Below, one piece after another: positions 8,812 through 10,471 of a stretch of 64,000 bases of DNA. Made by a program: the position numbers and the translations under genes. This DNA comes from Schmidtea polychroa (taxonomy: Eukaryota), in assembly GCA_044892525.1 (NCBI GenBank), contig CM097885.1, forward strand, positions 6,574,001 to 6,638,000. Direction: 5' to 3'. The notes beneath the pieces were generated by a model. The model saw only the letters and a program-made list of their open reading frames with translations. It ran no database searches and had not been told where the DNA came from. Each line of letters opens with the position of its first letter. The stretch's first letter is position 1.

Positions 8812-10397
8812 AGTAGATGGATTGGGCACCGCTAGCACAGTACCCCCCCCCCGTCGGTAAGATTTTCAAAAATATTCTAAGTCTAAAAGTACATTTTTTT
8901 TTCAAGGTCAAATTTAAACAAAGACATATGACTCATCAAGGTCATTGAAACAAAGACCATGAGTCATCCTATGACTCATAAAATTTTTCAAGGTCATTTA
9001 AACAAAGACCATGACTCATCCGATGACTCAGCAAGGTCATTTCCAAGGTCATATGACTCATAATATGACTCATCAAGGTCAAAAAAAATTCTCAAGGTCA
9101 TTTAAACAAAGACCATGACTCATCTAGGTCATTTTCAAGGTCATATGACTCATCCTATGACTCATCAAGGTCATTGAAACAAAGACCATGACTCATAGTA
9201 TGACTCATATGACCTTGGGAAATTTTTTTCAAGGTCATATGACTCATAGTATGACTCATCAAGGTCATTTTCAAGGTCATATGACCCATAGTATGACTCA
9301 TCAAGGTCATTTTCAAGGTCATATGACTCATAATATGACTCATCAATGTCATTTTCAAGGGCATATGACTCATAGTATGACTCATTTGACCTTGAAAATT
9401 TTTTTCAAGGTCATATGACTCATCCTATGACTCATCAAGGTCATTCTCAAGGTCATATGACTCATCCGATGACTCATCAAAATTTTCAAGGTCATTTTCA
9501 AGGTCACCTGAGTCATCCTATGACTCATCAAGGTCATTTTCAAGGTCACATGACTCATCCAAGGTCATATTATTATTTTTAAAAATATTATTATTTTTAT
9601 TATTATTTTTAAAAATATTATTATTTTATTTTTAATTTTTTCAAAGTTCCCGCCAACGAAAATTAATAATCGATAGCTCATTTTAAAGCTCAATCCAAGA
9701 CCTTTCGAATGAGCCATATATCTTATTATTATTATTATTATTATTATTATTATTATTATTATTATTATTATTATTATTATTATTATTATTATTATTATTA
9801 TTATTATTATTATTATTATTATTATTATTATTATTATTATTATTAGTATTAATCTATATACACCGAGTCTATATACTCTGAGTCTATCCGACAAAATATT
9901 TTGTCCCCCTATGGGTAATGCTCACAAGGGTACTGGTCACGCTCAACAAATCAACAAAACATACATTTATTTAAACAATAAAATAATGTAAAATTAACAA
10001 AGGTAAACTAAATATTGATGCACTTCTATTCGCAGCATTATTGTTAGAAATTGGTAACGTTGAATTGATTTTCAGATATTCTATTGATCCTTTGATTGTT
10101 TGAATTTCTCTTAATAATAATTCAATCTTTTTTAACAAATAATCATGCTTCTTATCAATAATCTTCATATTCTTTTTATTTTCAGTAATAGAGTTATTGA
10201 AAACCTCAATATGATCAATCAATTTAATTTTTATATTTTGTATATATTCAAATGTTAGTTCATAACTGTTTTCTAAATTCTCCAATCTTTGAGATATTCT
10301 TTTTCCTGGATGCTTTGACCATTTTGGTTTATCGAGAATATATAAAATATCCATCAACTTGGCTGTATTCGGACAAACACATATTGATTTATTAAAA
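8812..10397 (+). repeat. Left TIR of the Polinton (~1.59 kb)
   Basis: Reverse complement of 25871-27020, apart from repeat-array copy number and (ATT)n length. Confidence 0.93.
8900..9570. promoter_or_regulatory. Sub-terminal tandem array (42-bp unit TCAAGGTCATTTTCAAGGTCATATGACTCATAGTATGACTCA) rich in AP-1 and NR5A-type motifs
   Basis: Roughly 25 TGA(C/G)TCA and roughly 24 CAAGGTCA motifs counted by eye. The repeat is certain; the regulatory role is inferred. Confidence 0.6.
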
Positions 10398-10471
10398 GAC
10401 TCCACCGTTATTGTTGTATTGTGTGAGCACACACTCGTTATAATAATTAGCAATATGAATAGAGTTTTCAT
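9971..10471 (-). CDS. 166-aa predicted cell-surface protein: signal peptide, coiled coil, GPI-type C-terminus
   Basis: Hydrophobic leader MKTLFILLIIITSVCS; heptad-rich core; several N-X-S/T sites; ends SNNNAANRSASIFSLPLLILHYFIV with no charged tail. Confidence 0.75.
   Translation of the reverse strand: MKTLFILLIIITSVCSHNTTITVESFNKSICVCPNTAKLMDILYILDKPKWSKHPGKRISQRLENLENSYELTFEYIQNIKIKLIDHIEVFNNSITENKKNMKIIDKKHDYLLKKIELLLREIQTIKGSIEYLKINSTLPISNNNAANRSASIFSLPLLILHYFIV

Follow-up and report, generated by a model that had tools for sequence, protein, structure and literature searches.

The 64,000-nt stretch of the Schmidtea polychroa genome analyzed here (the window) contains, at the left end of an element of the Polinton/Maverick type, a small gene whose predicted product resembles a glycosylated, membrane-anchored surface protein, and the question that it raises is what such a protein might do for a nominally non-enveloped element. 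Polintons/Mavericks are recognized by terminal inverted repeats (TIRs) with AG..CT termini and a 6-bp target duplication. The ends of the element match this hallmark, with TIRs, AG..CT-type termini and the 6-bp duplication GGTCAA at 8806-8811 and 27021-27026 (Table 1). Pfam analysis of the element discloses a packaging ATPase (Pox_A32) and an adenain-type protease (Peptidase_C5) above the cut-off, together with an integrase (rve) below it; ORFs of 1130, 407 and 351 aa occupy the places expected in a Polinton, with no Pfam match to PolB or capsid and with unnamed proteins as the capsid relatives, and from size and position we infer that the 1130-aa ORF encodes the polymerase and the 407-aa ORF the major capsid protein (MCP). 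The genome carrying the element is AT-rich and comprises 781 Mb.

Table 1. Coordinates of the element, its ends and the genes of its left arm within the window.
Feature	Position	Strand	Remarks
Polinton/Maverick element	8812..27020	.	18.2 kb; termini AGTAG...CTACT; GGTCAA on both flanks
Left TIR	8812..10397	.	includes degenerate satellite (about 8900-9560) and ATT run (9723-9845)
Right TIR	25871..27020	.	
Orphan gene	9971..10471	-	166 aa; AATAAA overlaps the stop codon (about 9966-9971)
Predicted signal peptide	10424..10471	-	codons 1-16: MK, 8-11 hydrophobic residues, V-C-S before H17
CxC (C31-V-C33)	10373..10381	-	in 26/28 aligned variants
Coiled coil	10061..10297	-	residues 59-137; predicted parallel, in register, about 11 nm
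Predicted GPI signal	9974..10042	-	candidate omega N144, spacer, hydrophobic end 153-166
Bidirectional promoter	10501..10547	.	TATAAAT 10501-10507 (-), CCAAT 10517-10521, TATAAAT 10541-10547 (+)
Bcl-2-like gene, two exons	10577..11097	+	intron 10874-10917; divergent neighbour
5'-cut second copy of the orphan gene	25872..26297	+	codons 26-166; ORF from Met40 at 25914, 127 aa

Several other features were observed in the window and in related copies: (i) a TBP-like ORF at 12948-13169 (-) (PF00352, E 2e-8); (ii) an ATT run within the integrase ORF (poly-Ile, about 15113-15184), probably an intron that happens to preserve the reading frame, because it begins with GT and ends with TTTTAG; (iii) a 1387-bp unit repeated in tandem at 40583-48651 with 97-100% identity, related copies of which lie near 56 kb (55813-57162); (iv) strong mosaicism among copies (L034, L036, L037, L050, L056, L060, L062, L064), the minor capsid being 47-99% and the ATPase 96-100% identical; and (v) copies (L031-L040) in which the left arm is repeated over 2.4-6 kb at the right end, several without a polymerase and others with inverted internal blocks.

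The ORF annotated in the first pass comprises all of the parts attributed to it: leader, CxC, coiled coil, sequons, small-residue region and hydrophobic end. An ORF of this size is rare by chance, with only 4 of at least 166 aa in 40 Mb of Markov DNA. Cysteines stand at positions 15, 31 and 33, five N-glycosylation sequons at 18, 27, 92, 136 and 148, and 71% of the a/d positions of the heptad repeat are hydrophobic; the heptad score was reached by 2 of 1,000 shuffles. A G-K-R motif at residues 56-58 (10298-10306, -), between head and coil, is invariant in 28/28 variants and may be a dibasic convertase/amidation site.

Cleavage of signal peptides follows the (-3,-1) rule. The hydrophobic run of the leader, LFILLIII, reaches a Kyte-Doolittle value of 4.0 over 8 aa and only 1.7 over 19-21 aa, the best window of that length taking in the polar SHNTT. 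With just three residues (MKT) ahead of a run of 8-11 hydrophobic residues and an invariant V-C-S behind it, the leader looks more like a cleaved signal than like an anchor, and the cut is predicted after S16. The first-pass annotation had raised the alternative of an uncleaved leader with a topology recalling tetherin/BST-2; such a protein would have two anchors and might trap enveloped particles. In size and overall plan (coiled coil with cysteines ahead of it, sequons, GPI-type end) the orphan protein agrees with tetherin, the h-region is 1-2 residues longer in some variants, and tetherin works by configuration rather than by sequence (PMC3715405). Nevertheless, the brevity of the segment ahead of an 8-11-residue run, the good cleavage site and the want of any 19-21-residue helix argue against this topology, and tetherin deprived of one anchor is inactive (PMC3715405); a two-anchor protein is accordingly very improbable here, and the leader was rejected as an uncleaved anchor.

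At the other end of the protein, a small-residue region (S142-S152) is followed by a hydrophobic stretch of 14 residues that closes the chain and, throughout the 28 aligned rows, stays hydrophobic to its very end. N144 was chosen as candidate omega site by the residue rules for positions +1 and +2: the former varies (N/I) and the latter is small (A/G) in 28/28 rows, with V at +2 in one copy outside the alignment (L027). By our own rules and hydropathy, the features of a GPI protein, namely N-terminal secretory signal, omega site, spacer and terminal hydrophobic stretch, are present, in line with the general plan of GPI precursors (PMC9412048), and no internal transmembrane (TM) or other internal hydrophobic segment was detected in the 166 residues. 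The signal-peptide and GPI-tail rules, which are our own and were written after the protein had been seen, were jointly passed by 0/20,000 residue shuffles; under the same post-hoc rules, 0/550 random ORFs of at least 100 aa passed. The product thus looks secretory, coiled-coil and GPI-type, which supports this part of the earlier prediction, and a GPI-anchored rod, taken alone, is a probable reading.

A secreted or shed product, working in soluble form as an oligomeric ligand or decoy, with a CxC head that could be freed as a peptide at G-K-R 56-58, would agree with the modest hydrophobicity of the tail (2.4 over 10 aa), with R or K inside it in 5/28 rows, and with the presence of GKR in every row, if this motif is a convertase/amidation site. 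The uninterrupted hydrophobic tail of the 28 rows and the small residue at +2 speak for an anchor, and a soluble ligand is unlikely.

AlphaFold2 monomer models have low confidence (pLDDT 40-41), and a fold search with one of them returned nothing at E 0.001, a result that is meaningless at such model confidence. In multimer modelling, which the first-pass annotation had proposed, three copies of residues 17-144 wind around each other in parallel and in register between residues 59 and 137, scoring 0.76 against 0.00 for the best of 3 controls, with runs that share at least 72% of contacts and a pLDDT of at least 64; a trimer is a candidate state. The mark used to judge such models is reached by 21/30 solved homo-pairs and 0/23 single chains. 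These counts apply only approximately to three-copy models and to eukaryotic proteins, and a coiled coil may reach the mark because it resembles solved ones. The models predict a parallel oligomer of ~11 nm that would lift a 40-residue CxC head off the membrane. Variation among the 28 aligned intact variants follows the heptads: over residues 74-133, changes common to at least two rows fall at 0/18 a/d sites vs 12/42 other sites (p 0.008), and counting single rows as well gives 3/18 vs 18/42. The heptad core is protected from change, and the variable residues sit on the outer face of the coil.

Conservation of the ORF, on which the first-pass annotation had made its reading depend, is evident from its copies. 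The genome search for the protein gave 2,450 candidates, of which the 150 scored are 96-100% identical, free of stops and all within copies of the element; diverged variants are 93% and 84-87% identical. As a sample independent of the studied protein, 40 stretches were fetched by matches to the MCP gene: 15 contain the gene, 3 only the Bcl-2-like gene, 11 other left-arm genes and neither of these, 2 are rearranged and 9 are without a left-arm match. The gene is intact in 10/15 of these copies and broken in 5/15. In the 14 MCP-anchored copies with long matches, variants common to at least two copies comprise 19 synonymous and 28 non-synonymous changes (pN/pS 0.36, p 9e-4, a p value that is indicative since the sites are linked), private variants comprise 2 synonymous and 23 non-synonymous changes, and the indels common to several copies stay in frame. 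A first pN/pS estimate of 0.18 was set aside because the copies behind it had been chosen by protein similarity. Pairwise dN/dS against four diverged variants is 0.28, 0.38, 0.44 and 0.32, and 0.73 against the nearest variant, from 1 and 3 changes only; the values for ATPase and capsid (0.03-0.08) are far below those of the orphan gene. The gene is real and under purifying selection (dN/dS about 0.3). A captured passenger that decays under relaxed selection and has little present function could account for the dN/dS of 0.3-0.4, the 5/15 broken copies and the loss of the gene from several subfamilies, yet the common changes preserve the reading frame, include an excess of synonymous ones and spare the heptad core, and the promoter is kept amid diverging flanks; we regard mere decay as improbable.

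The homologue search proposed in the first pass, carried out on protein collections and metagenome Polintons, yielded no relative. Among 1.84 billion protein representatives the sole match is the protein itself (P0001), no homologue was found among 7,990 longer proteins, and 83 candidate proteins yielded 2 near-identical matches only; the Atlas search gave no match, PHROGs 0, and 0/389 pattern matches in metagenome contigs are relatives. The 70 metagenome Polinton loci related to the element show no match to the gene, most of these contigs being without element ends, and none of the flank ORFs of 6 metagenome Polintons combines a leader with a hydrophobic end. Pfam and PDB matches to Fib_alpha (E 0.0013), bornavirus P and NDC80 were discarded as generic coiled-coil similarity below the cut-off. 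As judged by these sequence searches, the gene is an orphan of one Polinton lineage, and homology therefore points to no target. No relative of the capsid was found in the viral contigs searched. Metagenome Polintons with a capsid protein 54-58% identical (L083, L086, L066, L067) carry different cargo: judged by eye, L086 presumably has an E2 ubiquitin-conjugating-like ORF, L083 one resembling a phosphatase and L066 a RING ORF.

Sister multi-copy subfamilies whose capsid protein is 95-96% identical lack the gene, which is best read as accessory and dispensable; in two copies a RING protein occupies the left-end region in its place. Other arrangements of the left end include (i) a 185-aa protein with a C-terminal C3HC4 RING (PF13920) in other subfamilies (L167:3208-3765, L189:2686-3243, L192, L193), of which shorter relatives exist at left ends; (ii) a copy keeping only about the first 37 codons of the gene, followed by unrelated sequence (L062:2987-3100); and (iii) the ends of a sister subfamily (L054-L059) without either the orphan gene or the Bcl-2-like gene, the TIRs of which contain tandem units reading as 85-105-aa ORFs, the one tested having no Pfam match.

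Near-identical versions of the gene (93-98%) occur together with minor capsids 55, 66-67 and 99% identical to that of the window, which argues against a fixed virion partner and against type-specific exclusion. In the latter scenario, superinfection exclusion, the rod would occupy or remove a receptor used by particles of related elements; a surface protein with a host-type promoter and with variable residues on the outer face of its coil fits such a role, whereas its versions do not track the minor capsid, the presumed receptor-binder, and very many copies co-reside in the genome. Exclusion is unlikely.

The orphan gene and the Bcl-2-like gene are arranged back to back, each with TATAAAT 36 bp ahead, and the box lies 36-40 bp upstream in 117/118 gene copies that have a 5' end, retained while the flanks diverge. 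In the window, TATAAACAA stands ahead of the ATPase, two small cassette ORFs, a 121-aa ORF and the major capsid gene; the orphan gene is without the TATAAAC box of this virion cassette, and neither box was found within 120 bp of the integrase, minor capsid, protease and polymerase genes. If the boxes mark timing, the canonical TATAAAT and the missing virion-cassette box make it likely that the gene is early, an expression class that we infer from promoter type. The neighbour adjoins all 14 full-length MCP-anchored copies and the one partial copy; its assignment comes from a weak Pfam match (PF00452, E 0.01), and a distant relative is found in L047 at E 3e-6. RNA run X4 contains a GT..AG joint at the Bcl-2-like intron and a poly-A end at 11105. 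The same run shows a poly-A end at 10577 on the strand opposite the orphan gene, and poly-T ends, sense for the orphan gene, before 10173 and 10300, which are probably internal priming because they lie at A-rich tracts. One contig of run X1 ends at 9945, about 20 bases beyond AATAAA. The RNA signal at the orphan gene is weak and lies on both strands, and the records holding the gene, when checked for RNA entries, gave none.

A role in egress or cell-to-cell spread, suggested in the first pass, would make the product an attachment protein on vesicles or on a quasi-envelope carrying capsids. Nematode Mavericks possess an envelope-type fusogen and GPI proteins sort to membrane microdomains (PMC9412048), both of which are compatible with such a role; promoter type, with no TATAAAC box, and absence from the multi-copy sister subfamilies with nearly the same capsid protein disfavour it, as does the missing internal hydrophobic fusion segment, and spread is an improbable function. 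A fusion protein of class I or III was rejected, with no internal hydrophobic segment and a polar sequence after KR58. Another reading with a small chance of being right is a membrane bridge made by the Polinton, in which the CxC heads of the GPI rod would connect with a partner in an opposite membrane. If true, such a bridge would carry capsid-filled vesicles to neighbour cells, amounting to quasi-envelope attachment without a fusogen, or would trap enveloped particles of retroelements of the same host, a tetherin-like function reached via another topology.

From the inner boundary at 10397/25871 the TIRs run outward through degenerate satellite to the termini at 8812 and 27020, and the boundary does cut the gene here, as the first-pass annotation stated, although as a feature this does not hold, since the boundary shifts between subfamilies and most often takes in just the last 14-19 codons. 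The right TIR likewise contains a copy without the first ~25 codons (codons 26-166 are present); over 552 bp of unique TIR, the two ends show 1 mismatch. The first in-frame ATG of that copy is Met40, so that CxC is lost besides the leader, and no TATA-type box was found in the 120 bp before it. A cut as in the window, leaving a 151-residue open frame, occurs in 30 of the 150 listed matches (hand count), which points to a single event, then amplified. Among 20 right ends of other variants, 10 contain the last 14-19 codons only, 1 reaches about codon 49 and so has about 118 codons, 3 extend no farther than the stop codon and another 6 have no left-arm match. Of 9 other right ends, 2 include just the final 14 codons, 2 share the cut of the window and 5, which had been selected for a full match at both ends, contain the complete gene within 2.4-6 kb of left-arm sequence. 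The cut through the gene arose by accident in one subfamily, and TIR expansion probably left the right-TIR copy as a silent by-product. With its start at Met40 and no leader, CxC or TATA box, the truncated copy was rejected as a functional gene. The shifting boundary provides a clean record of one end copied onto the other in such linear genomes.

For the full-length protein, the preferred reading is a GPI-anchored surface protein that modulates the host cell. Transcription from a host-type promoter would be followed by secretory entry, leader cleavage, glycosylation, coiled-coil assembly and GPI addition, by which a small CxC head would be displayed on an 11-nm stalk at the host cell surface. 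The Bcl-2-like partner would block death inside the cell and the orphan protein would act outside, on a host surface protein, the binding or masking of which might keep the cell that runs the element from removal, as adenovirus E3 does; this host-modulating step draws on context and on the E3 analogy. Taken as a whole, the chain leading to an early, GPI-anchored surface modulator beside a Bcl-2-like protein is a tentative proposal, to which we assign slightly less than an even chance. Planarian Polintons are reported to be de-silenced during differentiation (PMC8532177); in a planarian host, this would offer the gene an occasion to act.

Animal Polintons are mostly treated as silent transposons, and a selected surface protein and a Bcl-2-like gene on one promoter suggest that this family acts on host cells outside and inside, in an adenovirus-like manner. 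The protein is small and easy to test. In the literature searched, most subscription papers being outside its scope, the pairing of GPI-anchored with polinton returned only a fungal genome report, and no non-enveloped virus encoding a GPI protein was found. A GPI-type Polinton protein may be undescribed so far; the architecture of the orphan protein is new for Polintons, and accessory membrane proteins in Mavericks and adenoviruses already have precedent.

Comparison with known systems delimits what is shared and what is particular to this lineage. Tetherin/BST-2 comprises a cytosolic tail and a TM helix and requires its two anchors (PMC3715405). The orphan protein resembles it in length, cysteines, predicted glycans, GPI-type C-terminus and a coiled coil predicted to be parallel, but has neither the cytosolic tail nor an N-terminal TM helix and would have one anchor instead of two; no sequence or profile similarity to tetherin was found in Pfam, PDB or the protein representatives. 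Viral copying of a GPI-type host protein has a precedent in a herpesvirus CD59 homologue (PMC5472698). In butterfly polintons, long 2-kb TIRs hold hexon and adenain (bioRxiv 10.1101/2025.02.07.637071), so that in both cases genes are doubled through inclusion in long TIRs, whereas in the present element the gene that is cut is an accessory one and the boundary shifts from one subfamily to another.

The first-pass annotation had considered a membrane glycoprotein unexpected in a non-enveloped element, a view at odds with the precedents of MFUS-1, the membrane-active genes of adintoviruses and transmembrane E3. The fusogen MFUS-1 of nematode Mavericks (bioRxiv 10.1101/2022.07.12.499685) is likewise a signal-peptide membrane protein gained by one Maverick lineage, but comprises 866 aa with a herpesvirus gB-like organization, a TM domain and fusion loops, none of which occur in the 166-aa orphan protein. 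Adintoviruses carry PLA2X, GasderminX, Cupiennin, Bcl2 and IAP (PMC8502044), variable accessory genes of animal Polintons with which the Bcl-2-like neighbour fits; in the available text of that source none is described as a signal-peptide or GPI protein, and the Pfam scan of the orphan protein gave no match to these families. Adenovirus E3 proteins are transmembrane glycoproteins acting on host surface proteins (PMC4858740), unlike the orphan protein, which is predicted to be GPI-anchored and coiled-coil and has no Pfam or PDB match to E3 families, so that the relation is one of analogy only; what the two would have in common is that both are fast-evolving, lineage-specific surface glycoproteins, here predicted, of a non-enveloped DNA virus.
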